Assembly: GCF_038025025.1 (NCBI RefSeq)
Contig: NW_027117341.1
Location: forward strand, 1,178,001-1,242,000
From: Phyllosticta citribraziliensis
Lineage: Eukaryota
Reading direction: 5' to 3'
DNA: 64,000 nt
Shown: in pieces, positions 37,284 through 57,395 of the stretch
Position numbering within the stretch: position 1 is the first letter of the stretch
Layout of the letters: the number at the start of each line of letters is the position of its first letter
The notes under the pieces: generated by a model
Seen by the model: only the letters and a program-made list of their open reading frames with translations
Database searches by the model: none
Told to the model about the DNA's origin: nothing
Translations under genes and position numbers: made by a program

Positions 37284-39106
37284 ATGACTACCCTTGGGGA
37301 TCTTCGGGCATACTGGCTCGGCGCCGTTGTGTGCATGGGAGGCTTTTTATTTGGCTATGACAGCGGCATTATGTGAGTCTGGGCGCCCGTATTGCGCTAC
37401 CGTATCGTCGGACTGACAGCTGGAACAACCTAGCGGCGGAGTCATGACCTTTTCCACGTTTGAAGCCGACTTCGACTTCACCAAGAAACAAAAGACGCGC
37501 ATCTCATCGTTATGCGTCTCGCTGCAACAGTTGGGCGCCTTTGTAGCCTGCTTCTTCGTCATCCCCTTGACGGCAAAATACGGCCGCAAAAAGGCCATTT
37601 TGCTGTCGTCCCTGACCTTTTGCATCGGCGCTATGCTCCAAACAATCCCATCCCGCAGTCTGCCATGCTTCTACGTCGGCAGGGTCGTGGCCGGCCTGGG
37701 ACTGGGCACCATGACGTACGTCGTGCCCATGTACAACGCCGAAATGGCGCCCACGCACCTGCGCGCGCGGCTGGGCAGCTTCTTCCAGCTCTTCTACACG
37801 CTGGGCATCTTCACCTCGTACTGGATCGACTACGGGGTGCAGCAAAACCTGGCCGACAGCGGCTCCATGCAGTGGCAGATTCCCGTCGGCCTGCAGATAT
37901 TGTTTGCGGGCCTGCTCGGCCTGGGCGTGCTGTCGCTCCGCGAGAGCACCCGGTGGCTTGCCAATGCCGATCGCTACGACGAAGCTTGGGAAAGCTTGGT
38001 ATACATGCGTGCCGACTCGTCGGATAAGACGGCCCTGGAGATGGCCGAGATTCGCGAGTCGATCCAATACGAGCGGCAGGCCCGGGCCGGCTTGACCATC
38101 TCAGGTACGTGATTGCGCCATCAGAGCTTGTTGGCAGGAGTCGTCGCGGACCCTTTTTTCCTGGGAGTTGGAGTTTGGATGCTCCCCGTCGCCATCTCGA
38201 GCGACGTGACACTTCCACGTACTCTTTCATCTGCGTATCCACGTCTCGACAACAAGACCCCCTACTGCCCCAGCCACACATGGCCCCACATCCCACACAT
38301 CACTTCGCACCCGCTGACCCTTCCCCACAGAATTCCTCTCCTGGCCCATCCTCAAGCGCATCATCGGCGGCTTCACCGTCTTTCTGGCCCAACAAGCCAC
38401 CGGCGCCACCGCGACCGCCTACTATGCCCCACAATACTTCTCCCTCCTGACCAACGGCTCCGAGCACAAATCGCTCCTCCTCTCCGGAATCTTCGGCGCC
38501 GTCAAAGTCTTCGCCTGCGGCCTGTTCGTCTGGCTGGCCGCCGACCGCTGGAGCCGCAAAAGCAACCTGACCATCGGCGCGCTGGGCATGGCCGCGTGCC
38601 TCATCGTCGTGGCGGCGGTGCTCAAAACGCGGCCGGCGCCGTCCGACGGCAGCATCCCCGGCAGCAGCAAAGCCATGGTCGCGCTGCTGTACCTGTTCGT
38701 CATGGTGTACAACTTCAGCTGGGGCCCGCTGCCGTGGCCGTACGTCAACGAGCTGTACGCGACGCGCCACCGCGAGGTCGGCGTCGCCATTGCCGTCGCG
38801 TCGCAGTGGCTGTGGAACTTTGTCTTCACCGTCAGCACCCCCTACATGATTGATAGTATGGGCTGGGGCACCTTCCTCCTTTGGGGATTGTTCGATGTCG
38901 TTATTGCGGCTGGTACGTTTGTTTTTGCGACCGAGACCAAGGGCTTGACGCTTGAGGAGGCGGCGCATCCCGAGCTTTTTGCGGATAATGCGGCGGCGGC
39001 GGCGCGGAAGTTGGAGCACGAGCGCGCGCCGAGCAGTGATGGCGTGGGGAATGGGAAGAGCGTTGATGCAGTCGAGGAGCGCGATGTCGGTGCGAGGGTG
39101 TCGTGA
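37284..39106 (+). CDS. Sugar porter family MFS transporter (quinate-permease-like), multi-exon
   Basis: GGFLFGYDSG, KYGRK, VPMYNAEMAPTHLRARLG, RESTRWL, QQATG, ADRWSRK, SWGPLPWPYVNE, ETKGLTLEE. Confidence 0.93.
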
Positions 39107-39747
39107 GTGAGAGGGCTTTGTTGGCGGGGAGAAAGGGGGAGGACTTGGAAAGTGGACGTGAGAGCGGTTTGGAGCATGGGGAATAGAGAGGGATGGCGGC
39201 GAGCCTAGACCCACGTAGTGACAAGATACCAACCACACATACCCACCTTAATCAAGTATCAAGGCTCAAGTGCCACGTCTCCCATGAAGTTTCCCATGAA
39301 CAGGCACCGAAACGTCGAACCAGCATCACCAGCGGACTGATGCACAATTAGTCAAAATCGTGAGCAAGTAGAATATAAAGCGTCCATTGAAAATACACGC
39401 CCGAATGGAATGGAGAGAAGGTGAAAGAATAAGAAGACCTGAAGAAGTCAGGAATAAAGACGACACAATCATTACAAGGGAATACAACCAAGTCAAACAG
39501 TGCATATCCTCTTTGCTTGTCTGCGCCGTGCGTGCTGCGCCGCTCGCTCGTGTATTGGTAAGAAAAGTAGGGAAAAAGGCAAGGAAAAAGGACGACAGGA
39601 AAAGCGCGTCTGTGTATGCGGTGCGTGGGGTAGGGGGTATCAAACCGAAGAAAGCGTCAAAAGAAACCCTTCAACATGTCGCGGCGTTTTTCTCGTTACG
39701 ATAGTACCCCTCTCTTTGCCTTCAACTCTGCTGCCGCTCACCTCCTC

Positions 39748-41622
39748 CTACGCATGAATCGCCTGCTGCACATGCGGATACACGCTAACCATGCGGGCAT
39801 ACAAGTCCGGGTGGTCACGAATAAGCACCTCCGGATCCCACGCACACGCAACGAAAATAGTGTCAATGCCGGAGCTCAGCGGCGTGGTAAAGACGTGGCA
39901 GATCTGCATGCCGATGAGGAAGGCGAATGCGACGACGACGGCCGTGTACTCGCCGTTGGCGTTGTAGGCCGGGCTGGTGAAGATGAGGTAGAGGTAGGCC
40001 AGCAGCGCGCAGGCGTAGGCGATGAATACGGCTCCGAGCGAGAGGACGGGTCCGATGAGGCACTCGTTGACGAGCGCATCGATGCCGCGGTCTTTGATCA
40101 TCCGCCACGTGTCGCGCGCCGCGGCCACGTAGGGCTTGCCGTACAGTGCGATGTGCGAGAAGGCGTAGCGGTTGAGGAATTGGACGGCCCAGTCTAGGAT
40201 GCCGATGAAGCAGCCGAGCACGCAGAACAGGATGGTGCCGACGATGTTGCCTTCGGATGCTTGCTGTTGTTGCGCCATGCTGCACAGTTGGCGCGCGAAG
40301 TTGATGATGGCGACGACCAGGCTGCCGAGCGACACGCTGCCGAAGCTGTAGGTTGTCGCGCGGCGGAGTGCGCCGCGTGTCGCGCCCTTGGGGAAGTTTT
40401 GCGAGCAAAAGTACCACGATCCGTAAACGCCAGAAATCGTTACGTGGATCGTGTTTTTGAGCCACTCCGAAATCCAGTACATGGCAAAGGTGATGAAGAC
40501 GAGGAGGCCGATGACTTTGCCCTTTCCACACCCACCGGCTCCCGTGCTGCACGCGTCATTGTTGTTGCTCGGCTCGTACTTGACGTACACTGCCACGAGC
40601 GAAACGCTGTACCAAGCGCCGAGGGCCGTTGCCAGAATTCCACCGACGGCGGAGACCAGGTAGACATGCCCGTAGTGCTTGGACACGTCGATGGCGGTTT
40701 GCAGCATCAATGCCGAGAAAGGGATCCTTGGTATCCAGCTGATGAAGCAAATGACGGTAAAGATGGCAAAGAGGAGGAATACTATGCCGCCAGACCAGTA
40801 GTGGCGACTCAGCATGTAGATGGCAGTGACAAATCCAAAAATGATGTTCAGAATGCCCGTGATCCAGATGAATTGCTTGGTAAAGGCGCGCGCCAGCCAC
40901 ACATAGCTGTAGCTGAGGACTATTGCCACACAGAGGCAGAAGATGAAGAGGACGACGGTGTTGGTTGACAGACCAAAGTCGTTGGCGCCGTCATAGATAC
41001 CACCGCCGTTGAAGCCCTTGGTAGCCGCTAGTGAAAACTGACGTTAGCTCGTTTGTCCCCTTTTCAACTCGACAGACCCTGAGGTCTGATGACAAAAGTC
41101 ATGGCATACGCAACAATAGGCAGGGGAACAATGGGAGCATTCAAGCTACAGCCCCTGGAACCCATAGTTGCGGTGTGCTACGACTCTGCTCTCAAGCCTG
41201 GCACCCTCGATTTCCCGCGACGCAACGACTCACCATAGCCCTGGATCGCTATTCCCGACACTGCAACGTATGCGCCAAAGACAATCAGAAACTACCGCCA
41301 TGTCAATTGTGTTGTTCGTCGACGACGTGGAGCAGCGCAGCGTGCGCGGGCCGATTACCAGAATCCCTGCCCACAGATCATTCCACTTTGGCTTCTCAAT
41401 CTTGAATGCCTGGTCGAACGTCGGCTTCTCGGCGTATGCGTAATTGGGGTCTGCGCCGTTCGGAGGGCCGTAGTTCTGGCCGTAGTTGGGAGGAGGCGGC
41501 GCGCCGTACGGCGGGTACTCTTTCTGGCCGTCTGGGGCGGGCATGTTGTTGTTGTATGCGGGCTGTGGAGGTGGCTGCTGGTAGTAGCCGTCGGCCTCGC
41601 CGTGAGGAGCGCCCGTGGCCAT
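39748..41622 (-). CDS. PNS1: Choline transporter-like (CTL/SLC44) protein Pns1, multi-exon
   Basis: Pro/Tyr-rich N-terminus, FDQAFKIEKPKWNDLWAG, WISEWLKNTIHVTISGVYGSWYF, TYSFGSVSLGSL, NRYAFSHIALYGKPYV, SGIDTIFV. Confidence 0.93.
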
Positions 41623-42461
41623 GGTTGCGACAATGATGTTGGAGGGGTTGACGAGTGAAGCGGGGACGTGTGAAAGCGCGGCAGAAGACCGAGCGACGAA
41701 CGCAAACCAGGAAGGGTCGGGCCAGGGTTCGGTTGTCAGTGACCGCATCATCCCTGCACTTGCCCTAGCAACGATCGGCCTCGCCCCGAGCCCTATGGGG
41801 TTTAGCGGCCCGAGCTTAATTTCCACCACACCCGACGACTCCAACGACATGTCATGCCTCTCAGCCCTCACTTCCGCTTCCAACCCCGACTGTTGAGCAA
41901 AGACTGGCTGAAATTCGTGGCATGGTCGACTGTTTCTACCCCGTAGCTCAGTAATGACTGCCGTGTCACGGCTGTTGTAAGACCTTGGTAGCGTCTCAGA
42001 CACATGTTGCCATTTTCCACTTACCTCTGCTAATGCTCCATACTATCGTGTATGCCACGACTCTTGGATGAAGCCCTAGATCTTCAGAAATTCTGCGCCG
42101 CAAATTCTGTGAGCCGCAATCGCGCTGCCAACCCCCATGGCCATGTTGATCGCACGCGCAAGACGCTGCCAACGCATCACGGCTCAACGCCAGGTTTGCT
42201 TAGGTTCCTCTCTCATTTCGCTCTCAGGCTTTCTCTTGCCACGGATGGCGTCAAGATTTCAAATCCAAGATCTTTTTTCCTTCAGTCAAAGCACGTGTAT
42301 TTGTCTTTTCGTACTCCTGCTCTTCCTGTTGCTTGCAGAAATCATTGGCGAAGCCCTCTGATGTTTGATCTTTCACAGTTGTTTCGAAACAAAGCGCCCG
42401 GGACAAACTAGTTCAATCAAGAGCGTTAGCAAAGGGATGACTTTCGTTTTAAACCGTGCTT

Positions 42462-42468
42462 TATAAAA
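42462..42468 (+). promoter_or_regulatory. Candidate TATA box upstream of the coiled-coil ORF
   Basis: TATAAAA followed by a pyrimidine-rich tract, about 760 nt before ATG 43222. Confidence 0.35.
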
Positions 42469-43221
42469 GGACCATGGCCTTGCTTTGCTGTCCTTGTGTG
42501 TTGCCCGCCTTTCTTATATCTTGTATTCCACTATATACCCTTATCCTCTTGTTGCATGGCCCTTCCCTTCCGTCAATGTCCGAAGCTCGTCGGTCGATCA
42601 TGGGTTGCGCATATACGTCGCTTGCTGTTGACTTGGCGGGAGCTGAAGTGTCTGTAAGGCCCCAAACTCGAGCCCAGCAAGAACGGCTGGTATACCGACC
42701 TTGTAGCCAACCTATTGTGCGAGTCATTTGAGCTTCTCTCTTGTGCTTTTCTTCTTTATTGTTTGGTTCGAAATCGGATCGCGCGTCTTCTTGCCTCATC
42801 GAAGATGGGGTTCGGGCTTGGCTGGAGCTGCTCAACACCAAGTCAGTCACCTGCGAATAGAGGAGTCTCTCGAGCTTTCTTACCGTCCGGGAGCAATCAA
42901 TGGTTGAAGTGTGCTTGCAAGGCAATGAGCCTGTATAGTTTGTGCAGCACTGCCGGCGAGAAAGAGCTGGCGCTCTGCCCTGGAGTGCCCAGGCGGTTGG
43001 CTCGCAGCGCCCACGCAGCGCCCACGCAGGCGCTTCGGTTGCCCACCGCGTGCCTCCCCTCCGGCTCCCACTCCGCACCGAGGCGGCCTGTGCGCTCGTC
43101 CAAAATAAAACGCGACCACAACCCCGACTCCTCCTCCTCTCCTCTTCACCGACTTCGATCGACTGAACGAACGCCAGCATTGCCCACCGCTAGCAACCGT
43201 TCCTCCATCGAAACCACCACC

Positions 43222-45819
43222 ATGTCCACCGAGACCCCCCTTCCCACGCTGCAGTGGGTCACCTACCTTCTTCTCCTCGCCCTCACCTCCTCTGGGTGCG
43301 GCTGGGTGGTCCTGTCCACGACCCTCGGCCTCATTCGTAGCCCGACGAAGCCTTTCTCCTTCGTCACCATCCTCGGTCCCCTGTTCTCCCCCGGTTTCCT
43401 GTTCTCCCTCGGTGTCTTCTCCAAGCTCGCCTATGACCTCGGCATGGCTTTGGCTTTGTTTTTGCTCCCTCTGGTTCTTGCCCTGCTCGTCGCCCGGGGT
43501 TTCTGCGTCGCCTTCTGGCTTGACTGCAGATTCCCCTTCCGGTTCTCGCCCACCTTCGACGACTCTGCCGCCACCCAGATAAAGGACTTGCGCAATGAGA
43601 CCAGTACTCTTCGCAAGTACTTTAACGAGTACGTCGCCATGCTCGCCAACAAGGTCTGCACCATGGGTCTCGAGCTCCACGCCAAGGAGGTCGCCTTCGA
43701 CCGGTTCCGCCGCGCCAGCACGAAGACCGTCGCCGCCCTCAAGAAGGAGCTCTCCGACGCTCGCAAGCTCGCCAAGGCCGAGAAGCATCGCGCCATCGAA
43801 GCCAGGAAGCGTTACGCTGACTGGAAGGAGATGGAACTCTCGGGCTTGGAGGACGAGCTCGACAAGTACAGGCGTTCCCTGGAAGCTCTTCTTGAAGGTC
43901 GCCCCATGGACGAGGAAATTCTCGGCCGGATCAGTGACAAGTTCTTGTTCGGTGACCGCCTTCGCCTCATGGACTTGACCGACCGCCAGAAGAAGGATAT
44001 CGGCGCCCTTCGGACCCAAATCGACGGCCTCCAGAGGCAACTCGCGGATGCCGCCGTCACCGAGAAGGTTGTCGCCCTGGAACGTTCCCGCCAGCTCGAA
44101 GGCAAGATCACGGATCTCCAGCAGAAGATCCGCCAACTCGAGCACGCCAAGGACGTCTCCGCCGCCGAAATCTCTTTCCTCTCTCGCCAAGTGGCCGCCC
44201 AGGGTACCTTGTCCGACCAGTCTGCTTCCGATTGGGAGTTGCAGTTCGCTGCTGTCGACCACCAACGGAAGCTCGCGGAGTCCAACTCGAGGGATCTCGA
44301 CATCAAGCTGCAGTCTCTTCGTCGCGAGATGGAGAAGGCTGCCGAGTTCCAAGAGGAGGAGCTCTCCCGCGCCCAGGACAAGGCATACCGGTACTCGCAG
44401 GCTATCGACAGGGCTGAGGCCGACCGCGACCAGGCCAAGCAACTCGTCAAGTCTGCCGACCAGGAACGTCGTGCCGCTGTCGCCAGTGCCGACACTCTTC
44501 AGTCCGAGGTCAACTCGTTGACCGAGGAGCTCAAGATCCTCCGCGCCGGCTGCTGCTTGTGCATCTGTCCCTGTTGCCCGGACGGCTGCTCTGCCCACCG
44601 TTTCGGCGCCGCCTCGCCCTCGCCCGTCCCCGTCACCGTCCGTTCGCCCTCGCTCGCCTCGCTCCGCCAGGAGCTTGATCGCCTTCGCTCCGAGAACGAG
44701 ACCCTTCGCCAGCCCGTCCGTTCGCCCTCGCCCTCGCCCGAGCTCGCCTCGCTCCGTCAGGAGCTTGATCGCCTTCGCTCCGAGAACGAGACCCTTCGCC
44801 AGCCCGTCCGTTCGCCCTCGCCCTCGCCCGAGCTCGCCTCGCTCCGTCAGGAGCTTGATCGCCTTCGCTCCGAGAACGAGACCCTCCGTCAGCCTGTCCC
44901 TTCGTCCTCGCCGTCTCCCGAACTCGCCTCGCTGCACCAGGAGCTCACCCGTCTTCGTGGTGAGAACCAGCAGCTGAGCCATGTTCACGGCGAGAACTTG
45001 AGCCTCCGCCAGCAAATCGCTGCCCTCTCGCAAGAGAACACGACGGCTCGGGGGCTCATGGGTCAGGCTGAAGGTCAATGGGCCAGCCTGCAGGACACCA
45101 CTCGCCGCCTGGAAAGTGAGCTTGCCACATCTCGTGAGCAACTCGGCACTGCCCGCCGTGAGCTTGCCGCCTCTCGCGAGGAGGCTACAGCTGCTCGCCA
45201 GGAGGCCAGTTCCGTCGCCGCTCGTGCGGATTTCTTGGCCGAGCAACTCCGCCGCCAGGTCGCTCGCTCCACCGCCTCTCCCGTTGCTGCTCCCTCCGCT
45301 CCCCCGGCCGCCCCTCTCGCTGTCCCTCCCACCGACCAGATGCTCCTTGCCCAGCAGCAGGTCGACCAGTTGACGAGGCGCGCTGAGCAAGCGGAGCAGA
45401 AGCTCCAGGAGACTCTCGACCGCCTGGATGCCGCCAATGCCACCTTGGAGACCTACCGCAACACCCCGGGTGCTCTCTCGTTTGAGGAGCGCAACACCTG
45501 GGCTATGGAGCGTGGTCAGCTCAGTCTTCTGCTCGCAGGTCACGACTCCGAGGTCGCCAGCCTCAAGCGCCAGCTTGAAGATCTCGCCCACCAGCTTCAA
45601 GACAACGAGGCTGAATTGGAGGAGGCCGAAGTCAATCTGGCGAAGCTGGAGGTGGACCACAAGGCCGAGATCGACAACCTGGAAGACATCATCCAGGACT
45701 TCCAGGAGAGAATCGATGACCTCGGCAGCATCGACGACGAGATTGAACAGCTCCGAGAAGAGAACGACGAGCTCAAGGAGGAGTTGAAGGAGTGTTACGA
45801 AACCTTAGGGTTTCAATAA
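43222..45819 (+). CDS. Orphan intronless protein (865 aa): N-terminal hydrophobic/TM segments, long coiled coils, Cys cluster, internal 30-aa repeats
   Basis: CACCATG context and strong C-ending codon bias. About 3 hydrophobic stretches in the first 100 aa, heptad-rich E/L/R/Q regions, GCCLCICPCCPDGC, and an acidic C-terminal coil. The frame is open upstream to 42715. Confidence 0.85.
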   Translation: MSTETPLPTLQWVTYLLLLALTSSGCGWVVLSTTLGLIRSPTKPFSFVTILGPLFSPGFLFSLGVFSKLAYDLGMALALFLLPLVLALLVARGFCVAFWLDCRFPFRFSPTFDDSAATQIKDLRNETSTLRKYFNEYVAMLANKVCTMGLELHAKEVAFDRFRRASTKTVAALKKELSDARKLAKAEKHRAIEARKRYADWKEMELSGLEDELDKYRRSLEALLEGRPMDEEILGRISDKFLFGDRLRLMDLTDRQKKDIGALRTQIDGLQRQLADAAVTEKVVALERSRQLEGKITDLQQKIRQLEHAKDVSAAEISFLSRQVAAQGTLSDQSASDWELQFAAVDHQRKLAESNSRDLDIKLQSLRREMEKAAEFQEEELSRAQDKAYRYSQAIDRAEADRDQAKQLVKSADQERRAAVASADTLQSEVNSLTEELKILRAGCCLCICPCCPDGCSAHRFGAASPSPVPVTVRSPSLASLRQELDRLRSENETLRQPVRSPSPSPELASLRQELDRLRSENETLRQPVRSPSPSPELASLRQELDRLRSENETLRQPVPSSSPSPELASLHQELTRLRGENQQLSHVHGENLSLRQQIAALSQENTTARGLMGQAEGQWASLQDTTRRLESELATSREQLGTARRELAASREEATAARQEASSVAARADFLAEQLRRQVARSTASPVAAPSAPPAAPLAVPPTDQMLLAQQQVDQLTRRAEQAEQKLQETLDRLDAANATLETYRNTPGALSFEERNTWAMERGQLSLLLAGHDSEVASLKRQLEDLAHQLQDNEAELEEAEVNLAKLEVDHKAEIDNLEDIIQDFQERIDDLGSIDDEIEQLREENDELKEELKECYETLGFQ
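44638..44970 (+). repeat. 90-bp in-frame tandem repeat (PVRSPSPSPELASLRQELDRLRSENETLRQ), about 4 copies
   Basis: Near-identical copies start at 44713 and 44803, with a shorter copy before and a diverged copy after. Confidence 0.92.
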
Positions 45820-46036
45820 GCATTTCGCCATCTTCTCTCCCTCTCGTTTCTTCTTGGTTTGTTCTTCTGCCTGGTGCGTCGCAAGGTCGGACGCGACGTA
45901 AAACACGCTTGAGGACCGTCTTTCGACCGGCTTTTTCAGACATTCGGATCGACATTCTTGGATGACCCCAGCATTGCTCCCCTCTAGTGGTCTTCGGACC
46001 GCTGCCCTTCATTCTGGGTTGAGCTTCTTGCCGGCA

Positions 46037-46349
46037 GCAATCCCGTAGCACCCTTTGGGACCCCCGGATTGCATTTCCCTTCCTTGAACGACATCCAGTC
46101 ACGCCCCACGGATCCTCCTTGAGCAGCCTTCATGGCTTGCTTCCGTCCCCGCGAGTGGACGAGCACATCTCGCCTTGCAGTCCGTAGCACCTTTTGGGAC
46201 CCTCGACTGCAAGTTTCCAGCAGCCTATGACACGGCTATAAACTGCCCCAGCCCCAGACGGCCAGCCTTGGCACCGTTCGGTCCTTTGTGCAAGTGGACC
46301 AGCACATCTTGCACCGCAGTCCGTAGCACCCTCCGGGACCCTCGACTGC
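46037..46349 (+). repeat. Three about 139-bp-spaced modules: stem-CGTAGCA-CCY..GGG-ACCCYC-stem
   Basis: CGTAGCA at 46044, 46183 and 46322. Closing stems GCAATCC/GGATTGC, CTTGCAGTC/GACTGCAAG and GCAGTC/GACTGC. Confidence 0.85.
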
Positions 46350-46434
46350 AGAATTCGACAAAGCGCAAGGCAGAAGTTCCGGGGCGTGGTGAGTGGACAC
46401 ACCGCGTCTTTGGCCCCTTCAACGCTCTTTTCCA

Positions 46435-46705
46435 AGTTGTCTTGCGTCAGATAACAAAGCTTCTGAGGGACACTTGCCATCGTTCCTTCAATCCATGGAC
46501 AGGGCACTCGACGGCTTTGGCGGAGCTGTCTTGAGCCTGATGCGGGGTCACTTGTTCCCTGGAGGGCTTGAAAAACCGCGTCCACTGGAGGAACTGGTGA
46601 GTTGTCTTGCGTCAGATAGTGGCGTTACTGAGGGACACTTGATCCAGATTCAGTCCATGAACAAGGCGAACGACAAGCTTTGGCGGAGCTTGTTTTGTAG
46701 CTGAG
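46435..46705 (+). repeat. Two diverged about 105-bp direct repeats, 165 bp apart
   Basis: agttgtcttgcgtcagata..ctgagggacacttg..tccatg..gctttggcggagct at 46435 and 46600. Confidence 0.85.
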
Positions 46706-48282
46706 AATCGAGCAGTCAGTCGGTACCTCGAGGCCTTCCTAAACCATTCTCACGTTCATTGGACCGGACAATCAGCCCCCCGCGGATGGAGCAGCACATT
46801 CCGCACCTTCGGACTTTAGAAATCCGGACTAAACCCCAAAAAAAGATTGAAAGAACGGCAATAACCCACAAAAAACCTTTCCTGTACGGTGCTTTTACTT
46901 CATTCTGTACCTACCAGCGACCTTCTTTCGACTCCACTCAAACCGCAAACCAAAAACCACAAAAACACTTGCAAAGAACGACAAAATTACCCCAAAAACA
47001 TTCTGCGTCTGGCGACCGCTTTACCTGTTGTTCGATAGCACCTGCAGCCATCCTCGTCTCTCTTTTACCGAGGAGCATCGGAACCCGACGAAACAAGACC
47101 TCCCATCAAACAGTGTTCTGGAATCTTGCAAACGCCGCTCTCTACCTTCTGACGAGATCGTGGCAATTCCACTCACTTGGGTCTGTTTCTCGTGGCTTAC
47201 CTCTTCCGACACGGCTGTCACCTTTCACGTTCGTGGTTTACCTTCTGGCAAGCTTTAATACTCTTCCGAGCTTGCGCCTTGCGGTTTTACGACTTTCCTG
47301 CTGCTTTACGCCTGTACCTTTACGACATGGGCTCGCTGGCTGTACTTCTACGGCTTCTACCATACCGTCGACTGCTCCCTTTCTTCGCACCGACGACTCG
47401 GCCGTTCATGCTGGCAACTCCAGGGCTTTCGGGTTACGCCCTTTCTGCACCACGGAACGCTTTCCTCCCTCTGCATCCAGTGTTCCTGTGGCGATTTACA
47501 CGCGCTACGAACCGACACCCGGGCCGCTCTACGCTTGGGAATCTCTTGTGGCTGTTGATTGACATCTTCTTCGACGGCTCTCCCTCGCTGTATGAGCTCC
47601 CACGGTTCTTCATGGCCAATTTACATCCATCGATGGCCCTACTTGCGCCCTTTGTCGGCCTTTTGCTGTGGCAGATTCACAGCAGACGGACTCGTCTCCT
47701 CTCATTCGACGCATACGTCTTGCGAGCTTTCCTGGGTTTTGCTCGCATCCCCCGTTGTTCAATCACTCTTCGAACGACGATAAATCTACGCTTGGTTGTT
47801 GCTCCTACGGTCGTCACATCTGCTCTTCCTTCCCACAATTCTCACATTTCCGAAGACGAAGACGACCTCGACTAGCTCTCTTCTACGTCGACAGGAGCAC
47901 CCATTCTTCCGACGACTTGGTCCATTTTCCCTCGTTGTCTTGCCTGCTTTCTCTTCTCGGCAGGCTCCGAAATTTGACCGTGCTGCTGGTTTCTGGGTTT
48001 CCAGCACCGTGGTTGCGCTGTTCACAGCGTCTGGCTTACTCGTCCTGCTACTCTCCACGGCAGTTGACTTGTGAGCTTCCCTGGGCATTCAAATCTTCTG
48101 GTCGTCTCCCCATTCATCGACGACCGGAGCTCCTCACTCTTCCGGCTTGCTTTCCTTTTCTTGTCAAGCGGGATTCACTCACGACGTGCTGCCTTCTGGG
48201 CTGTACTTGCGGCACGTCATGTCTTCGCGCTCCATCTACCGCGCAAGACTCGTCTGATTACACTCCTCTCATCAGGCGATCA

Positions 48283-49979
48283 CGACCGGTTCAGTCTGGC
48301 TTCTATTCACTGGACTGGTCGCTACTCCAATCTACGACGACCTACACGGGCTTCTTGGTCGTCGGGGCTGCTGCTCGTTTCCTTCAACTTGGCTTTACAC
48401 GCCTGGCATGCAGTGGCTCCTCAACTCTTCTGGGCACTCTCCGCGGCTTTGTCGACGATTCCCTACCTCTTCTACGTCGACGAAGCTGCTACTCCTGCTG
48501 ACCGGTCCATTCAACCTTGCTTTTGCTTCTTTGGACTGGTCGGCTTCACAAATCAGCGACGATCCGGGTGGCTCCCTGGTTGTCTGCTTTGTTTCTGGCC
48601 ACTGCGAGCTTCTGCTTTCACAAACTACCTGGCTGGCTCTCTTTCTCTGGACTTGCTTGCGGCGGGCTCTCCTCTACATGGCGGCTCTGTCGAATCATCT
48701 TCTTCTGCACCCTTTCGACGGAGCTGCCCCTCTGGGCATTCTTTTCGGCTGACCGGTCCATCCAATCTCACTGACTGGTCGGCTTCTCAAATCTGCGACA
48801 AACGGGGTGGCTCCCTGGTTGTCTACTCCACTTCTACCACCGCTCGCTCCTCTCAATGGCTGACAATCTCTTCGGCAAAGCCTGCGGTGGAATCCTCCTT
48901 CAAATCTGGCTCCTCTGGAGCTTTGCGGCTCTGTCAAATCACCTCTTCTCTACGTTTTCGACGGGGCTGCACTCTGGGCATTCTCTTCGGCTGACCGGTC
49001 CATCCAATCTCATTGACTGGTCGGCTACTCAACAATTTGCGACAAACGGGGTGGCTCCCTGATTCTCTACTCCACTTCCAGCCACCGCGCGCTTCTCTAA
49101 ATGGCTGATCTCCTCGGCAACGCCTGCGGTGGCATCGGGCTCCTTCGGGGCCTTGCGGCTCTGTCGAATCATCTTCTCTACCCTTTCGACGGGGCTGCAC
49201 TCTGGGCATTCTCTTCGGCTGATCGGTCCATCCAATCTCACTGACTGGTCGGCTACTCAACAATCTACGACAAACGGGGTGGCTCCCTGATTGTCTACTC
49301 CAATTCCAGCCACCGCGCGCTTCTCTAAATGGCTGATCTCCTCGGCAACGCCTGCGGTGGCATCCTCCTCAACTTCGGGCTCCTTTGGGGACTTGCTGCT
49401 CTGTCAAATCACCTTCTTTTCTACGCTTTTGACAGGGCTGCACTCGGGCATCTCTCTTGCTGACCGGTCCATCAAATCTCACTGTGCTTGCTACATTTTG
49501 GACTGGTCGGCCTTCCACATTGACGACGACCTGGGTGGGCTCCCGGGGCGTCTGCTTCACTTTCGGCCGCTGCTTGCTTTCTACCTCAAAAACACTTGGC
49601 TGATCACCCCTTTGGCCTTGCTTGCAGCGGCCTTCCTCATCAAACGAATGTGTCACTCTGGGCAATTTCCAGCTTACCGGTCCTTCAACTTTCGCTGCTG
49701 CTACAACTTGGACTGGTTGGCTTTACACATCGAAGAAGACCTGGGTGGGCTCCCTTGTCATCTACGCTTTGGCCGCTGCTCGCTTGCAACTTCAACAACA
49801 CGTGGCTGTCATCTCTTTGGCATTGCTTGCGGCGGCCCTTACCCATCAAGCGAATGCTCCTTGGCGGCTTTGTCGATTCCCTCACTTCATCGACGAGGCT
49901 GCTTCACCTGATGCACACCTCGGGGCATTCACAGTGATCGGTTCAGCAAACTGCTGGCGCTACACTTTGAACCGATCAC
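48283..49979 (+). repeat. Tandem array of about 8 diverged 212-263-bp units, each with conserved hairpins
   Basis: Hairpin GCTGACCGGTC..GACTGGTCGGC or variants at 48283, 48497, 48747, 48989, 49217, 49459, 49671 and 49934. Confidence 0.9.
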
Positions 49980-51821
49980 GACACAACTTTACAACGACTT
50001 GGCGGGGCGGCTTCCCTACATCTTCAAGTAAGCCATCAATCACTCTGGGCATACGGCTTACTCGATTCGCAACTTGGATTGTCTCCCAAGCTGCCAAGAG
50101 CTCTCTCCTTTCGAACACCCACCAAACAAAGAGTGTTCTTCCCCTTCTCTGTGGAGCTCAGCCGCTCAGCCAAGTCGACCACCTTTCATTCCACTTCAGC
50201 AACTCGGTCACTCGACCAAGTTGTTTCCCTTTTGCTTTTTTGTTTTGCTTTTTCGTTTTTGCTTTCTCTCACAACCCTGGATGAACCCTGGATGGATGCC
50301 GGCTCCTTACCACCACAACTGCTGCTTTCCGAGGACGACAATGGCTTCTCCCAATGACCGCCAACAAAACAACCCGTCCTTGGAACCGGAGCCTAGCAAA
50401 TCTCAGCCGGACTGTAGACTTCTCTGGCAATATGATCCGCCAGATCAGGTTGGTTACTTTCTGCTTCAACATTTTCTCTTCAAACACTCTCGAAGCCTTG
50501 CCGGCCTAACCACTACTGCTACTGCTACTGCCGCTGCTACTACGAAAGATCCAACCAAGCCGAAGCTACAACCACTACCGGCTGGCCCATTATCAAACAA
50601 CTTTCCGCGGTCTTCCAAGACTTCGACTCCAAACAACCGGGCTGGCCGGCCGGCACAAACATCTCCCACTCCACGCGCTCCTCCGCGTCAAGAACACCCC
50701 TCCTCGCTCAAGCTTGTCATCCTCCGCTGTAGATTCTCCACATTCAATCGTTCGGCCGTCAAAAGGACAAGGTGCAAAAGCGCCTACTTCAATCTTCCCC
50801 GAACAGAGTCTCTTCCAGCACGACGAGCAGCGAACCCCCTCCGCGACGTGGTCAAAAGCTCCAACTACAAACAACCGAGCTAGCCGGCACAAACATCCAT
50901 CAATCCATTCATCCATCCATCCATCCATCCAGGGTTCAACGCAAAGCTGGCAGCCTCCAGGCCAGCATACGAGATGGTCAACCCTCAAAAGTAAGCTTCG
51001 CCCTGGAAAAGCTCATCGTCTTGAACCTTGCTAACCACTTGTACGACAGAACAAACTACGCGACCATCTCACGAACAACCCATACAGGGAGTGTTCACGG
51101 CCACTACAAAAGACCCTCAAAGCTTCGCGCTCTCGGCTTTTGCATCCGCCAAATACCAACATGGTGGCAAGCTGGTCGCCCCCAAAACGTAAGTCCTACG
51201 GTCCCTACGCCCCCAATTCGAAGTCGCATGCTAACACATTACACCACAGAATCATTAACACAACACCTTCACCAACAACAGCCATACTCAGCCAAAGCAG
51301 CCCTTCCACACACCACGGTCCACCAGTCCTTCTCGCACCCCCACCCGCCGACGCGGCGGCTTAGCAGCCTAGGGACGTCTGAGGGTTACCTCCACCCGAA
51401 AGGCAAGCTCGCCAATGCTGACGCGGGAGGGTGTGGGCGGGGCTGCGTGGCCGTGATGAGCAGGCGGCTTTCGCGCGCTTCGTGTTGCGGCTTGAGGTGA
51501 CCCTCGTCGTGCTCGGTCAAAGCGTTGCGTGCCGTCTGCTGCTGTGGCGGGGTTTGTGTATGGGCGCGGTGGGCTGGCGTTGGGTGCGAGGCCGGGGCGA
51601 CCACGGACGGCGCGGGACGTTGGACAATGGCATCGTTCACAGACACTTGAACACAAACAAAACGAGCCTTGTTCGACGGCGCCAGTCCACTCCACAAACA
51701 TCAAAAACATCAAAAAAGAAAGAAAAAACAAAGCCAAAAAGGCAAAGAAAAAACTCTCAACCCACGTCAAACACCAACACCAACATCACAAGCACACAAA
51801 CACAAACCGCACGCGCGCAAA

Positions 51822-51975
51822 ACCCAACTACATCACCTGAACGCAGAGTCAGTGATGGCCGGACCGAACGACGGCTCCGCCTTTGCGCGCGCGCACGCAA
51901 GACCCCAACTACATCATCGGGCGCAGAACCGGTGATGGACGGACCGAACGACGGTACCGCTTCTTGCGTGCACGC
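51822..51975 (+). repeat. Two 80-bp tandem direct repeats with a covarying hairpin
   Basis: cccaactacatca..gcaga..gtgatgg(c/a)cggaccgaacgacgg at about 51823 and 51904. Confidence 0.85.
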
Positions 51976-52074
51976 GGGCTGTGCTTGCTGATTGACTGAC
52001 TGGGTTGAGTGGGAAATTTGAGGAGGATAGTGGAGGGGGAGGGGCGGGGGAAGGAGAGGGGGATTTGGTGTCCG

Positions 52075-52395
52075 AAACTCTACATTCTACACTCTACACT
52101 ACACTCTACACTCGACTCTACACACTCGACTCAAACGACCACTCTACCAACAACGACAATTCAACCGACTCTACCACCCGACACAACCAACCAACCGACC
52201 GTCGCGACTCGCTGTCTCCGCCAACAACCAACTCTCTCAAATCGAATCAACTCAACCCACCATGTCGACAATCCAACACTCCAACACTGCAACACTCCAA
52301 CAATCCAACAATCCAATAACCCGACACCCCGACACTCCGACACAGACAGCGAGTCCGACGACACCAAACCAAACAAACAAAAAACAAAAAATAGA
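52075..52395 (+). repeat. A/C-rich low-complexity tract (ACTCTAC and CCAACA repeats)
   Basis: Read directly; very G-poor on the + strand. Confidence 0.8.
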
Positions 52396-53291
52396 AGGGC
52401 AGCCGGCCCCAGCGACGGGACCGAAATTCAGGCACAAAGCTTCAGCTTCAGCTTCAACTTCAACTTGACACGGAAGCGGTGGAGGGCATGACGGGCACGG
52501 CAGGGCAAGGCAGAATAAGGCAGGATAAGGCAGGATGAGCCTGACGGGCTGGAGCGAGACACGAGTGGCATCGAGGAGCATTTGATGAGAATGTCCCGGT
52601 GCGGAGCGGTTCAGGGTGAAGGGGCAGGACAAGCCTGGATGATTCAAGCGCGAGAGCGGAGTGGAGTTGAATGAAGAATTAACGACGCGTTTCTACCATT
52701 TCTGGTGCTGCTAGAGCTGTGAGAAGGGTACTTGGTGCTGTGTAGAAGAAATTCGCGATCTGCCTCCCATCCTTTTCTGCCACCATTGCACGTGACGAGT
52801 CCCTGAGAGTATCTTGACGGACAACTTTTACTTCAAGGCCGGACCATTTGGATGTATGAGAATCATGGCACTGGAGGTTTGGAAAGTATCATTGACCGTG
52901 ACGTGATTGAAGCTAAGTTTGATCAACGTGAAGCAAAATTGACCACATTTCCTAACTTCGTCCCTTTCCACGGCGTCACCACAGCGTTTGACTACCACCC
53001 TCTGAAAGCAAGATGTAACCTTAGATCTGACTCCCTTGTATGCGTAATTTGTTGGAATGCGCGTAGAAACCCGTCAAACACCGGTTGCGATTTGTCATGA
53101 ATGTCAAAGCAATCACACGAGCCAGTCATCACGATTCGATCGTGATGTGAACTGGGTACAGAGCAAGAAAGAAAACAGGAATAAGTCTTTTGAGGCGAAG
53201 ACTGATCTGCAGTCAATTGGACTTGTGATCGGAGGTCTGTCGAAGTCATCAGCGGAGAACATATGAAAAGCGCACGCTGGCTTACAAAGGT

Positions 53292-54374
53292 TTAGTCCTT
53301 GGGCTCCGTCTTTATTGAGACTTCCGCATTTTGTCTCTTGTCGCTGGGGTGAGAATGTGGCTGCTGATCTTCAGCATCTGTAAGGGAACTTGGGCCGTGC
53401 TTGAAGGACTCTAAAGTGCCATGGACTTTCGTAAATTCGTACAGTGAGAAGTATCCAGTGGGTTGGTTGAGCGGTTGCTCGGAATCATCGCATGTGTTGT
53501 TGCTTCCACGATTGCCATTGCCATTGTAGTCATCTTTGATTTGATAGTGACTCTCCTCCCGCCGACTTGTGAATGTGTTCTTTCTCTTGTGTCCAACATG
53601 TAGCTCGCTCTCTTCAGTAGACTTGTCGTGCTGCACTCCTCTTTGGAAAGCAGACGACTGTGCTTGTTTGAGCTCGGATACCTTGGATTCAAGCGTCTGT
53701 ATCCTCTGATCTTTTCCCTCCAGCGAGGCCTCGTGTGCGAGATTCTTCCGTTGCACAAAGGCCTCAAACCGGTTGTCCTTTTCGCGGAGAGCACTTTCGG
53801 ATGTTTCCTGTGCAGTCCGAAGGTCTTTGATGACTGCCGACGTTGAGCTGAGAGAGTTCTCGTAATTTTTGACTTGGTGTTGTAGCGCTTGTATTGCTTG
53901 GTCTTTCCGTTGGATGTTGTCATGAAGCTGCTTTGTTGCGGAGTCCAGCGTAACGATTGTAGGCATTACAGCGTAGATGGCGCTGCCAACACTTGGTCCC
54001 GTCAGGGGCACCAACGACGAGTCAATCCGAAAATACCCCAATCTCTCAAGCTCAGTCAAAAGTCCATCATAAATGACCGCAAAAGCCTCTTCGCGCCCTA
54101 GATTTCTAAAATCCGGCAATGAAAAGCGACCAGGCTCCAGAAGCTTGCGGAAGAAGCGATCTGCGGCGCCCGTGTTGTGGAAAGCTTTGGGGCGTTGAGC
54201 TACCGGGAGTTGCGAGTCGATCGTGGCTAGAGCCCGGCCTCTGTAGGCTTTTTTGACGCCTGTGCGTGTTAGGGGAGGTATGGGTGAAGGCTGGAGGAGA
54301 AGGGTACCTTGGAAGAAGCTGATGCTGGCGTTTCCTGAGAAGGAAGCCGGGACGTAGCCGTCGCGAATTGCCAT
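53292..54374 (-). CDS. Hypothetical coiled-coil protein
   Basis: Long ORF from MAIRDGYVP with a probable 48-nt in-frame intron (GTACCC..CTAAC..CAG). Coiled-coil segment KQLHDNIQRKDQAIQALQ..KDQRIQTLESKVSELKQ. True start uncertain. Confidence 0.65.
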   Translation of the reverse strand: MAIRDGYVPASFSGNASISFFQGTLLLQPSPIPPLTRTGVKKAYRGRALATIDSQLPVAQRPKAFHNTGAADRFFRKLLEPGRFSLPDFRNLGREEAFAVIYDGLLTELERLGYFRIDSSLVPLTGPSVGSAIYAVMPTIVTLDSATKQLHDNIQRKDQAIQALQHQVKNYENSLSSTSAVIKDLRTAQETSESALREKDNRFEAFVQRKNLAHEASLEGKDQRIQTLESKVSELKQAQSSAFQRGVQHDKSTEESELHVGHKRKNTFTSRREESHYQIKDDYNGNGNRGSNNTCDDSEQPLNQPTGYFSLYEFTKVHGTLESFKHGPSSLTDAEDQQPHSHPSDKRQNAEVSIKTEPKD

Positions 54375-54389
54375 GATGCAGTGGCCTTG

Positions 54390-54662
54390 CAGCAGACCGA
54401 GCGGGCAAGAGACCCGAAGGCGAGAGACGTGCACGTCGTGCCAGGCTTCAGAGCGGGAAATTGGAGCAATAATCGTGCACGACAGGCCTCAGAGCGAGAG
54501 ACTTGAGCGAAAGACCTGAGGGGGACGTGGCAAGAAATGTTCGCAGCGGCCTTGAGGCAGACTGAGCGGGCAAGAGACCTGAAGGCGAGAGACGTGCGCG
54601 TCGTGCCAGGCCTCAGAGCAGGAGAATTGAGAGGCAGCCTTGAGGGAGACGTGCAAGAGATG
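54390..54662. repeat. Diverged direct repeats about 164 bp apart
   Basis: gcagac(c/t)gagcgggcaagagacc(c/t)gaaggcgagagacgtgc(a/g)cgtcgtgccaggc at about 54393 and 54557, plus gaggg(g/a)gacgtg..caaga..atgt at about 54518 and 54642. Confidence 0.85.
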
Positions 54663-55098
54663 TCCCCGAGAGGAGTGGGTGAGAAGAAGGAACCCAGCAC
54701 TTGGGTGGGTGGGTCGATGACCACCTGCCAGTTGGAAAGAAGGAAGGCACCTCACCCAGCAGTCGCCACTGCCTCCAACCAGCAACACCACCAAAGCCGC
54801 AGCTCTCACATCACGAACCCTCCTCATCGTCTTCCACTCGCTAGGTACATAGTCTTGAATACGCACAGTTTTACTCCGCACGTCTGCTACCAGTACTCGG
54901 CATCTCACCCCTCCACAATTTCTACCGCTCGTTTTATACCGCAGCACGGTTGCGCCGCTGCGTGGCTTCTGGATCCGAATTACAGCAGAAAAGAAGACCG
55001 GTAAAGGCAGAGACCGTCGAGTCGTGAGCCCCAGCATTCGAGTCACTGAAGAGCATCTCACCGACGACTTACCTCCAGCACTCCCTCTCCAGACCACC

Positions 55099-55765
55099 AT
55101 GGCAGACTCCCGGTCAGACTCAAACGAAACCCGCGTCACCCACGCGTGGGCGGCAAACATGTCACCGCACGTCTCGCCTTCCACAGCGCAGAGCGCTGCC
55201 AACCCGGCGCCTGCAAGCTCGACTACGCACGGCAGCACCACTGCTGCAGCTGGAAGCGCTGCTGCGCAAACCGCAGACACCCCAGAGGGGGCCACGGGCC
55301 TCGTAGTCCACATGACAGTCGAAACAGTCACCTCGACCACCGCCGCTGCAGAAGAACCAGCACCACCGTCCAGCAGTGCGAGCCCACCGGGTAGGAGATT
55401 CCTCGCCGACCGCCGGCGCGTCTACAGAGTCAGCCAGCCCCATTGCACACCGCCCATCAAGCAACCCACCCAACTGACAGCACACGCAGCTCCACGAGCT
55501 CCCCGACGGCCGCCAAAGACTGACGCCTCGCGACGGCGTCGTGCCCGAGTGCGGCGACCCGGCGCTCGTCTACAACGAGGTGCTGCACATCCACTGGGGG
55601 GAGGAGGAGCTGCGCGTACACGTGCACGTGCGGAAGGACGGACGCATGGTGATTTTGCGCGCCCTCACGCCCGACGAGCAGGTCGTCTGGGAGGACATTT
55701 TGCGAGCGAATCAGGGCATTGAGCCTCGTCTCATCGCCATGGGGGGAGCGAGGTTGGAGCCATAG
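55099..55765 (+). CDS. Hypothetical protein, 2 exons
   Basis: CACCATG start and Ser/Thr/Ala-rich exon 1. A phase-0 intron GTCAGC..CTGAC..CAG (about 55429-55489) joins RRVYR to LHELPDGRQRL..EVLHIHWGEEELRVHVHVRKDGRMVIL..RLEP*. Confidence 0.65.
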
Positions 55766-56465
55766 AGGTGGGGCTCGTGAGGAGGGTGCTGGGACAGTTG
55801 GGGTTCTGGTGTCTGTGTGTTGGTTTGGTGTGGAGGCATGTTTTGCTGCTCGGGGTTGTTCCTGAAGAGGTTCTGCATCTTTCACTAAGTGAGAAAATAG
55901 TGGCAAGGGGCTTGGACAGAAGGCTGCATGTACAGAGGTCGAGCCTAAATGACGTTACGGCCTGCTGAGTGGGTACCAAGCAATCAACGCAAAACAAAGC
56001 GTCCATCTTCAAGAGCTGAAAACAAGGCCAAAGCGGGAGGTTGTAGTGTATAAACAAGAACTTTAATCTGCATCGCTGCCCTCATCGAGGGGTTTAGGTA
56101 CGACTGCTCGCTGCGCACCTTTTTCGCGCGTCAATCAACGTAGAGCCAGACAGCAAAAGCAGCCAATCTGCCGCGTCTCGCCGCGATCCAACTAGAGGGT
56201 TCTTTTACTTTTTGCTGGGCATGACTAGGACCGACCAACATTTTGACGCCGATGCTGATGCCGGAGTTGTTGGACCACCCACCCACCAAGTCGTGTACGT
56301 ACAGTGTGCGTTGCTCTTTCTTTTTGGTAAATGGCAAAAAGGGAGCAAAAAGTGTTTGAGAAGATAAAGACACGCGAGAAAAGAATTGGGCGAGGTTGCG
56401 AGACTGTACACGGGTTTTTTTTTGCATCGAAATCTTTTAAAAAGGGCCGGCAAGGCACGACCATC

Positions 56466-57395
56466 TCAATCGTCTTCGCTCAGCTGCCGCGCAAGGCCAC
56501 CAACAGCGGCGCCAGTGCTGGGGAACTCGAGCACCATGTCGACCCACTTGACGCCCTGAAAGTCGTTCTTGCTCAGCCCGCGGTTGACGAAGCCGACGGC
56601 CTCGTAGAAGGGGACGAGATGGTCGTGGGTGATGATGGCGATGCGGTCCGCGACGCCGGCGTTCTGGATGCGCTGGACGTACGCCTTGAGCAGGGTGCGG
56701 CCGAGGCCGCGCTTCTGGTACTCGGGCAGCACGGCGAGCGAGTGGATGGCGACGGTGCGGCCGTCCTCCTGGTGGCCGACGGGACGCGCGGCGTCGTGGG
56801 GTTTCTCGCGCCAGTTGTCGGGCACGGCCATGTCGTCGGTCGAGATGAGCTCGTTGCGCGTCTTGGTTGCTAGGACGTGGCCGAGCAGGATCTCTTTGCG
56901 CTCTGGGCTGCCTGATTCGACGATGTGGGCGGTGGATGTTGTGGGGACGCTGGAGTCGGGCGCTGTCGAGGTTGTGAAGAGGCCCATGCAGAGCTCGCCG
57001 CAGATGGTTAATCTGTAGAGGATCTGGGAGTGCGTTAGAAAGTGGCACGTGACTTGGTAGGTAGAAGGTTCCGTTGGAAGGAACGGAAGCGGGAGTGACA
57101 AGGCAGCGCCGAGGAAAATGTGACGATGGTTGGATGCGGAAAGAGGTAGAGATGGAGGTGTTACCTTGTCTCTGCTACCGCGCAGGGCCTCGTCAAAGGC
57201 GGCATTTTCGCATGTAACGCAGCTGTCGAGATACGAGGGATTCAAGGTGCCGGTGATTGGGTGCAGGTCGTTGGGGTCGCGGCCGTGGCGGTGCTCGTCG
57301 AGGGCGTCTTCATGGTCGAGAGAAGGGGGTGATTTGACGAGGGGGGGCATTCCGGCCAGGGTCTGGCGCCGTTCCTCGTCCAGGTTGCGAGGCAT
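56466..57395 (-). CDS. PAA1: GNAT-family N-acetyltransferase (polyamine/arylalkylamine acetyltransferase, Paa1-like)
   Basis: CENAAF, YRLTICGELCMGLF, LLGHVLATK, GHQEDGRTVAIHSLAVLPEYQKRGLG (acetyl-CoA motif), HLVPFYEAVGF, WVDMVLEF. One intron at about 57023-57164. Confidence 0.85.
   Translation of the reverse strand: MPRNLDEERRQTLAGMPPLVKSPPSLDHEDALDEHRHGRDPNDLHPITGTLNPSYLDSCVTCENAAFDEALRGSRDKVTPPSLPLSASNHRHIFLGAALSLPLPFLPTEPSTYQVTCHFLTHSQILYRLTICGELCMGLFTTSTAPDSSVPTTSTAHIVESGSPERKEILLGHVLATKTRNELISTDDMAVPDNWREKPHDAARPVGHQEDGRTVAIHSLAVLPEYQKRGLGRTLLKAYVQRIQNAGVADRIAIITHDHLVPFYEAVGFVNRGLSKNDFQGVKWVDMVLEFPSTGAAVGGLARQLSEDD

Follow-up and report, generated by a model that had tools for sequence, protein, structure and literature searches.

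A tandem array of strand-specific hairpin modules in Phyllosticta citribraziliensis as a candidate structured RNA of the repeat-module kind

The DNA analysed in this work is a 64,000-nucleotide stretch of Phyllosticta citribraziliensis (assembly GCF_038025025.1, contig NW_027117341.1, positions 1,178,001 to 1,242,000 of the forward strand), referred to below as the window, and all coordinates are positions within it. The window consists of G+C-rich fungal DNA with short GT..AG introns of 48-67 nt, as measured at spliced joints in two RNA runs. The element in question is a tandem array of hairpins on the + strand (48034-50060) that, judged from its letters, is a candidate structured RNA of the repeat-module kind. 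It sits inside a 7-kb gene-poor tract rich in other simple repeats, and upstream of it on the same strand lies an intronless open reading frame (ORF) of 865 aa with a predicted coiled coil (P0001; 43222-45819). An earlier note on this DNA had joined the ORF and the tract downstream of it into one system.

The array was delimited with Tandem Repeats Finder (TRF), self-BLAST, nhmmer and a covariance model, and is composed of nine units with four hairpins each (H1 to H4). The units are found at 48034-48227 (weak), 48281-48496, 48497-48747, 48748-48989, 48990-49217, 49218-49460, 49461-49671, 49672-49922 and 49933-50060 (partial). Unit lengths are about 211-251 nt, with a TRF period of 228, and the seven well-delimited units measure 216, 251, 242, 228, 243, 211 and 251 nt. 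Covariance model R1 matched the units with E values from 9e-74 to 6e-3, and its full-length matches were on the + strand only; the central units are most alike (241 bits) and those at the edges are weak (22.6 and 10.6 bits). The consensus unit structure contains 49 pairs, with H1 an 11-13-bp stem, H2 short, H3 a long-range stem around a small hairpin, and H4 a 12-15-bp stem. Stems of the array are 10-15 bp long and tolerate G-U pairs, and the loops (12-27 nt) are almost G-free and C/U-rich, the loop words CTTCT and TCTTC being no more than pyrimidine-rich. No other copy of the array was found in the window by self-BLAST, nhmmer or the covariance model. Immediately upstream, a zone of about eight hairpins of the same style (47600-48033, + strand; stems of 7-10 bp, pyrimidine-rich loops) has no recognisable repeat, and neither nhmmer nor the covariance model of the array unit matched it below an E value of 0.7. 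The last hairpins, at 50061-50250, form the 3' edge.

Both strands of 38-58 kb were folded in 200-nt segments, and each segment was compared with 30 dinucleotide shuffles. The + strand z-score was between -2.27 and -5.65 in 13 of 13 consecutive segments (47601-50001), and the minus strand was weaker in every one of these (z -0.29 to -2.75). Of the 76 segments in the flanks (38001-47401 and 52401-57801), four reached z -2.27. Within this domain, the zone at 47600-48033 gave z -2.27 to -4.47 and the segment at 50001, on the 3' edge, z -3.66. A second folding tool, applied to 48748-49217 (470 nt), returned z -7.60 (-175.6 kcal/mol) for the + strand and z -1.53 (-141.1 kcal/mol) for the minus strand, and for the non-repeated 47640-48033 it returned z -3.67 on the + strand versus z -1.87 on the minus strand. 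With a strand-symmetric stem finder, in which G:T and A:C were treated alike, 23 stems were counted in 47600-50250 (2651 nt; 8.7 per kb), versus 3.15 +/- 1.74 in 20 shuffles. Stem density elsewhere in the window is 0-6 per kb, and is about 1 per kb in both stretches that adjoin the domain. One of these, between the ORF and the domain (45820-47599, + strand), is a spacer whose folding is not unusual (z +2.69 to -1.67; two stems, 1.1 per kb). The other, on the far side (50251-52500, + strand), is an A/C-rich low-complexity tract with microsatellites and 0.9 stems per kb, and is not a hairpin array; 4 of 11 segments at 50201-52201 reached z -2.27, and these correspond to single, isolated elements or to sequence of low complexity. 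The excess of folding, specific to one strand, is real and covers about 2.6 kb (47.6-50.25 kb). The earlier note had described about 7 kb of almost continuous stem-loops folded in the + strand: the folding is indeed better than in shuffled sequence and stronger on the + strand, but its extent had been overstated about threefold.

The + strand of 47600-50250 contains 32.6% C and 21.9% G, and within the folded hairpin domains G makes up 38% of paired and 7% of unpaired positions, the unpaired positions being 42% T and 34% C. The array, a G-poor and pyrimidine-rich sequence, puts nearly all its G in stems. Of the two kinds of loop given in the earlier note, the pyrimidine-rich, G-poor loops are found in the array, whereas the A/C-rich sequence at 50.25-52.5 kb forms no hairpin array.

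Comparison among the units showed conserved stems and variable loops. In an alignment of seven units, 95.4% of 325 cells are paired, and 9 of 49 pairs have changed on both sides and still pair, versus 3.8 +/- 1.3 in column shuffles (0 of 500 shuffles reached nine) and 0-2 when the partner was slid by 1-3 columns. When an eighth unit was added by alignment to the covariance model, a procedure that leans towards structure, 12 of 49 pairs showed such double-sided, pair-keeping changes (4.7 +/- 1.6 in shuffles, 0-3 in slid controls). Over these comparisons, 94.7-95.4% of cells are paired. Pairwise identity is 82.6% in stem columns (4.5% gaps) and 59.0% in unpaired columns (24% gaps), a contrast reached by 0 of 92 circular shifts of the structure mask. 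Stem mismatches are strand-specific as well, with GT:AC counts of 18:1 in kb 48 and 9:0 in kb 49 (27:1 in total) against a background of 51:64 in 1-42000, and the same G-U pairs are retained in 5-7 of the seven units. The G:T bias is lost at 50061-50250 (GT 1 : AC 4, in three stems). Both the preference for G-T over A-C mismatches, which would make the + strand the folded one, and the compensatory substitutions between repeat copies had been noticed in the earlier note, and both were confirmed by these counts. Conserved stems with drifting loops, pair-keeping double changes, and tolerance of G-U but not of A-C are what selection on a + strand RNA would predict; together with the fold statistics and the strand asymmetry, they support a structured + strand RNA over about 2.6 kb.

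The tract appears not to encode protein. None of the 25 stop-to-stop ORFs of at least 100 aa in 45.8-52.9 kb reached the curated cut-off of a Pfam family, and matches to HicA and US29 among them were dismissed as sub-threshold. The translation of 48071-48991 had no match among 5.8 billion proteins and corresponds to no called gene in the source assembly, and unit lengths are divisible by three in 3 of the 7 well-delimited units, as chance predicts. The statement that no credible ORF lies downstream of the coiled-coil ORF was confirmed in that neither a protein family nor a homologue was found at 45.8-52.9 kb. These searches likewise gave no match to a known transposable element or a decayed coding gene.

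Four sequencing runs were compared with 39000-57000; the contigs from them give no strand, start or end. Runs X2 and X4 derive from a single organism and match the window without differences. Spliced joints at introns nearby show that both runs contain RNA (41027/41234, 41291/41359, 53236/53286 and 54258/54307 in both, and 55428/55490 in X2 only). Contigs of X2 and X4 cover the neighbouring genes. Over the array, word depth in X2 is small and non-zero in every bin, and one contig ends at 49577, inside the array. The first 1.2 kb of the ORF has no X2 or X4 cover, the uncovered part being counted as evidence neither way. A rise in word depth towards 52.8 kb was considered either as 3' bias in a long + strand transcript or as read-through that decays away from the convergent gene, and both readings were dropped, as contig depth cannot rank parts; assignment of strand from adaptor orientation at loose contig ends was also dropped, there being too few ends and an unspecified library type. 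A further run, X3, comes from a relative, has no spliced joints and covers all 30 bins. The hairpin region is about 95% identical in X3 (34 differences in 639 nt and 36 in 672 nt); an intergenic stretch has 41 differences in 766 nt, and the 3' end of the ORF has fewer (17 in 784 nt). Among the X3 joints listed, to which 16 further joints are to be added, six skips of 54-229 nt and one 227-nt back-step fall at 50.6-51.7 kb (joints at 50666-51696), and one 16-nt skip only falls at 47.2-50.3 kb. Among the 40 differences listed out of 1236, five lie in the array, of which one is a stem change restoring G-C (48936), three are in loops and one is in a spacer, too few for a test.

We tentatively place first, among the explanations considered, a structured RNA of the + strand in the role of a multivalent scaffold, with a variant in which it is part of a 3' untranslated region (UTR) included. 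A four-hairpin module of about 230 nt would have multiplied in tandem, giving the nine or more copies at 48034-50060, and the hairpins at 47.6-48.0 kb would be older and past alignability. The resulting domain of about 2.6 kb would be maintained in a + strand RNA as a row of some 40 stem-loops, each independent of the others. Transcription of the + strand would be implied by either selection or a transcription-linked mutation bias, both being unproven, and we infer that the RNA would be made at a low level or only in particular conditions. Selection would then act on the RNA and not on the DNA, and the RNA would probably serve as a multivalent platform, its many equivalent hairpins binding many copies of one RNA-binding protein, with scaffolding or sequestration as the possible outcome, as in repeat-module long non-coding RNAs (lncRNAs).

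The repeat-module lncRNAs of animals include NORAD, with repeat units of about 300 nt, and Xist, with repeat A and repeat E. They resemble the array in having modules in tandem, each at most a few hundred nt long, with short conserved hairpins and U- or pyrimidine-rich single-stranded stretches between them, and stems that are kept while linkers drift; multivalent protein binding, proposed for the array, would be a further likeness drawn by analogy. The array differs from them in lacking any sequence or Rfam relationship to them, in its fungal lineage, in having four hairpins per module, and in its large G-free loops; no motif known to bind protein was recognised. The array has the conserved hairpins in tandem modules that are expected of this class (nine units, 49 pairs), the class being a functional one and not a homology family. 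To our knowledge, few fungal lncRNAs have a demonstrated and evolutionarily supported structure, and we know of none that is a long tandem array of hairpin modules. A literature search returned no fungal hairpin-module array among the matches listed, which is not proof of absence from print, and one on Phyllosticta lncRNAs returned unrelated reviews only. The fullest version of the proposal, which we regard as doubtful, is a modular architectural RNA of at least 2.6 kb, selected for its structure, that would nucleate or titrate an RNA-binding protein as an independent counterpart of the NORAD and Xist repeats and would maybe be co-inherited with the coiled-coil gene. Should the RNA be real, the locus would be a compact model, accessible to genetics, for the building of a multivalent RNA through amplification of repeats. 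If the locus is not transcribed, it would be a clean natural case of DNA-level processes that mimic what is commonly accepted as proof of structure in RNA (negative z-scores, a G-U bias, compensatory changes), and a caution for genome-wide structure screens.

Several observations weigh against a selected RNA. A cmscan search of 40000-56000 on both strands gave no Rfam 15 match at E <= 1, among families that include rRNA, tRNA, snRNA, snoRNA, telomerase RNA, RNase P/MRP, SRP and ribozymes; the result also agrees with the earlier judgement that the tract is none of rRNA, tRNA, snRNA or telomerase RNA. In absolute terms the array does not fold more stably than its surroundings (-236 kcal/mol per kb, versus -239 for the rest of the window), and its fold excess is relative to its G-poor composition. 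Divergence from X3 in the hairpin region (5.3-5.4%) equals that of the intergenic stretch and gives no sign of overall sequence constraint. The thin, patchy and strandless cover of the array is compatible with a rare transcript, with read-through from the convergent gene or with DNA carry-over. Most of the signal among units comes from copies of one ancestral unit, and the independent evidence is smaller than the raw counts because of this descent; when each repeat or hairpin family in kb 48-49 is counted once, the GT:AC ratio shrinks from 27:1 to 10:2. Double transitions make up 7 of the 9 double changes, and context-dependent mutation could hit both partners of an inverted repeat, since such partners have the same sequence context and thus share mutability. 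Slippage of the pyrimidine-tract loops could explain part of the contrast between stems and loops. Finally, stems can be made and mended in the DNA itself by template-switch mutation (PMC8794818). Repeat-induced point mutation was considered as a cause of the double transitions and is not favoured, the changed Cs lying outside CpA context (hairpin 1 of the unit at 49933-50060, inspected by eye) and G+C content being 51-58%.

The main rival is a neutral minisatellite, which we consider a substantial possibility. In such an array, a hairpin-prone unit of about 230 nt would have spread by unequal crossing-over with no functional RNA, its stems made or repaired by template-switch or quasi-palindrome mutation and its G:T excess produced by strand-biased mutation, for example of a transcription- or replication-associated kind. 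Head-to-tail units of 211-251 nt, with those at the edges the most diverged (bit scores falling from 241 to 10.6), are as expected of minisatellite or satellite DNA, and so is a setting in a gene-poor tract full of other simple repeats. The intergenic level of X3 divergence, the thinness of the RNA-run cover, the reduction of the G:T bias on de-duplication, and the slippage and shared mutability just described are further points in its favour. Template switching is documented to make perfect stems and multibase compensatory changes (PMC8794818). Its hairpins have in common with the array the reverse-complement arms and compensatory changes for which one event could suffice; it is a mutation mechanism and not a kind of element, and it does not predict conserved G-U pairs or a deficit of A:C. 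Perfect Watson-Crick arms are its product, yet the same G-U pairs recur in 5-7 of seven units. A strand-symmetric process would predict G:T and A:C in equal number, contrary to what was seen, and a + strand C-to-T bias would deplete C, whereas the + strand is C-rich. The array also differs from minisatellite DNA in that its stems and not its loops are conserved, in its compensatory changes and strand-specific G:T pairs, and in the hairpins that persist in the flank beyond the alignable part; the exclusion of G from loops stands against a neutral origin as well.

The structured RNA could be the distal part of a long transcript rather than a molecule of its own. In this variant, which is counted within the favoured explanation and which we hold to be improbable, the array lies inside a structured 3' UTR of about 7 kb belonging to the coiled-coil ORF. 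Array and ORF are on the same strand with no other gene recognised between them, and a C-over-G skew extends from the ORF through to 52.5 kb. No listed contig spans 45.8-47.6 kb to join the two, though contigs cannot prove absence, and the 1.8 kb that separates them is unstructured. A 3' UTR of several kb would be extreme for a fungus with short introns and closely packed genes. We lean distinctly towards a separate lncRNA over the distal part of a long 3' UTR. The proposal that ORF and RNA form one system finds no more than adjacency and common strand in its favour, with no bridging contig across the unstructured spacer, and was not sustained.

A cis-acting DNA element, in which the hairpins would form in single-stranded + strand DNA, is quite unlikely; the candidates include a site where replication starts or pauses, a hotspot of recombination, a fragile site and a section of a regional centromere. 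Strand-specific hairpins alone do not separate RNA from single-stranded DNA, in which G:T is also the most tolerated mismatch, and the tract is unusually gene-poor with low RNA cover; against this, we know of no fungal cis-element with about 40 hairpins and G-free loops. Very unlikely, finally, is a relic of a mobile or foreign element (a non-autonomous retroelement, a Helitron, an array of miniature inverted-repeat transposable elements or an integrated RNA replicon) or of a decayed coding gene, for although the surroundings are repetitive and lineage-specific and the ORF family is restricted to Phyllosticta, the 25 ORFs contained no relic of a transposase, reverse transcriptase, integrase or Rep and none reached a Pfam cut-off, no protein homologue, Rfam ribozyme or Rfam family was found, no long flanking repeats surround the array in the window and no second copy lies there, the exact hairpin-1 pattern had no match in viral contigs, and unit lengths are multiples of three at chance level. 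The suggestion of an integrated replicon or retroelement was accordingly not upheld, RNA-dependent RNA polymerase being likewise absent from the Pfam results. Twelve metagenome loci with the hairpin-1 pattern were attributed to chance (a single match each, in DNA of 49-72% G+C, with no BLAST similarity to the window).

Other known kinds of RNA element were set aside for specific reasons. Introner-like elements of Dothideomycetes are short sequences that multiply in the genome and whose predicted folds are unusually stable, and they share with the array the fungal class and the short, stably folding unit. The array units are tandem and intergenic, unlike introner-like elements, which are dispersed in genes. 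The 5' splice-site motif GTRNGT occurs 0 times on the + strand of 47600-50250, versus 4.1 +/- 1.9 in shuffles, and three times on the minus strand. The branch-point-like motif RCTRAC has seven occurrences on the + strand of the same interval, most of them at the very start of hairpin 1, and none on the minus strand. Introns and introner-like elements were therefore rejected, because the units lack the 5' splice-site motif; no ORF or homologue lies around them. For telomerase RNA, the template motif TAACCCTAA, which we take to be complementary to TTAGGG repeats, was searched for with at most one mismatch; it has five matches in the window, versus 3.45 expected, and none on the + strand of 45.8-52.8 kb, and telomerase RNA was rejected on the latter result. 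An H/ACA-type RNA was rejected, as no pockets of that type were seen in the simple stem-loops.

The coiled-coil ORF is, on the comparison of its translation with other proteins, a real, fast-evolving and lineage-restricted gene. The earlier note had called it an intronless, membrane-anchored coiled-coil ORF of 865 aa and an orphan. The first description agrees with the uninterrupted frame, the hydrophobic N-terminal segments and the long coiled coil that were found, and the second does not, because collinear homologues exist in Phyllosticta. A word-indexed search of 5.8 billion proteins returned a hypothetical protein of Phyllosticta paracitricarpa that is 48% identical to P0001, is collinear with it from the membrane segments through to the C-terminus, and has a CPCCPDGCS motif and the coding repeat in common with it, and a second homologue, in P. 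capitalensis, is 27% identical. When the first 327 residues were compared exhaustively by phmmer with 1.84 billion representatives, two clusters only were returned, the members of which are from P. citricarpa, P. paracitricarpa and P. capitalensis, and so from Phyllosticta only. Proteins of the homologous genes in public Phyllosticta assemblies are KAK7608371.1, KAK7543043.1 and KAK8223787.1. In Pfam, P0001 matched coiled-coil families only, all sub-threshold, and its neighbours in the ESM Atlas are generic coiled coils only, all below 0.9. The coding repeat, of 90 nt in 3.4 copies (44644-44945; TRF), encodes a 30-residue repeat. The Cys-rich CPCCPDGCS (residues 443-452) is in the middle of the coiled coil, is found in homologue P0002 as well, and could serve in metal binding or palmitoylation. 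Two X3 contigs cover one and the same 667-nt stretch of the ORF (43603-44269), with 14 differences in one and 81 in the other, which means that the X3 organism has the gene in two diverged copies or haplotypes. An open frame of 974 codons runs antisense to the ORF (42880-45804, minus strand) with a Gly/Leu/Arg-rich product; it was rejected as a gene, being a mirror frame typical of G+C-rich coiled-coil coding sequence.

On the left, the region is flanked by a choline-transporter-like gene on the minus strand (39751-41043; PF04515, E 8.5e-99), in agreement with its earlier identification as PNS1. Between this gene and the ORF, 41864-42851 is under an X2 contig (X4: 42054-42540), and this stretch represents a long 5' UTR or else a transcript that is not annotated; the ORFs at 41233-42042 (minus strand) and 42052-42408 (+ strand) matched no Pfam family. 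On the right, the region is flanked by an uncharacterised minus-strand gene (52.9-55.4 kb), beyond which lies a GNAT acetyltransferase gene (56.5-57.6 kb), so that the PAA1-type gene placed on this side in the earlier note is present, past the uncharacterised one. One X2 contig (52896-56583) spans introns of opposite sense, with minus-sense CT..AC introns at 53236/53286 and 54258/54307 and a plus-sense GT..AG intron at 55428/55490, and opposite-strand transcripts overlap or abut near 55.4 kb. A loose end of X4 at 55925, where adaptor is followed by a T-run, suggests the poly(A) site of a minus-strand transcript.

Within the gene-poor tract, the spacer upstream of the hairpins contains two short direct-repeat pairs on the + strand (46151-46211 with 46290-46350, and 46435-46527 with 46600-46690), found by self-comparison. 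The A/C-rich tract contains (CATC)n at 50894-50931 and ACACTCCA-type repeats at 52077-52343. A stretch at 52265-52742, just past the 3' end of the uncharacterised minus-strand gene, is under one X2 contig, which does not give its strand. A twin direct repeat of about 80 nt is found at 51808-51975, each copy of which has a G+C-rich Y-shaped fold (z -5.26 on the + strand and -3.20 on the minus strand). It had no Rfam match; it lies under contigs of both RNA runs (X2 51521-52013, X4 51618-51847) and may be a small structured RNA by itself.

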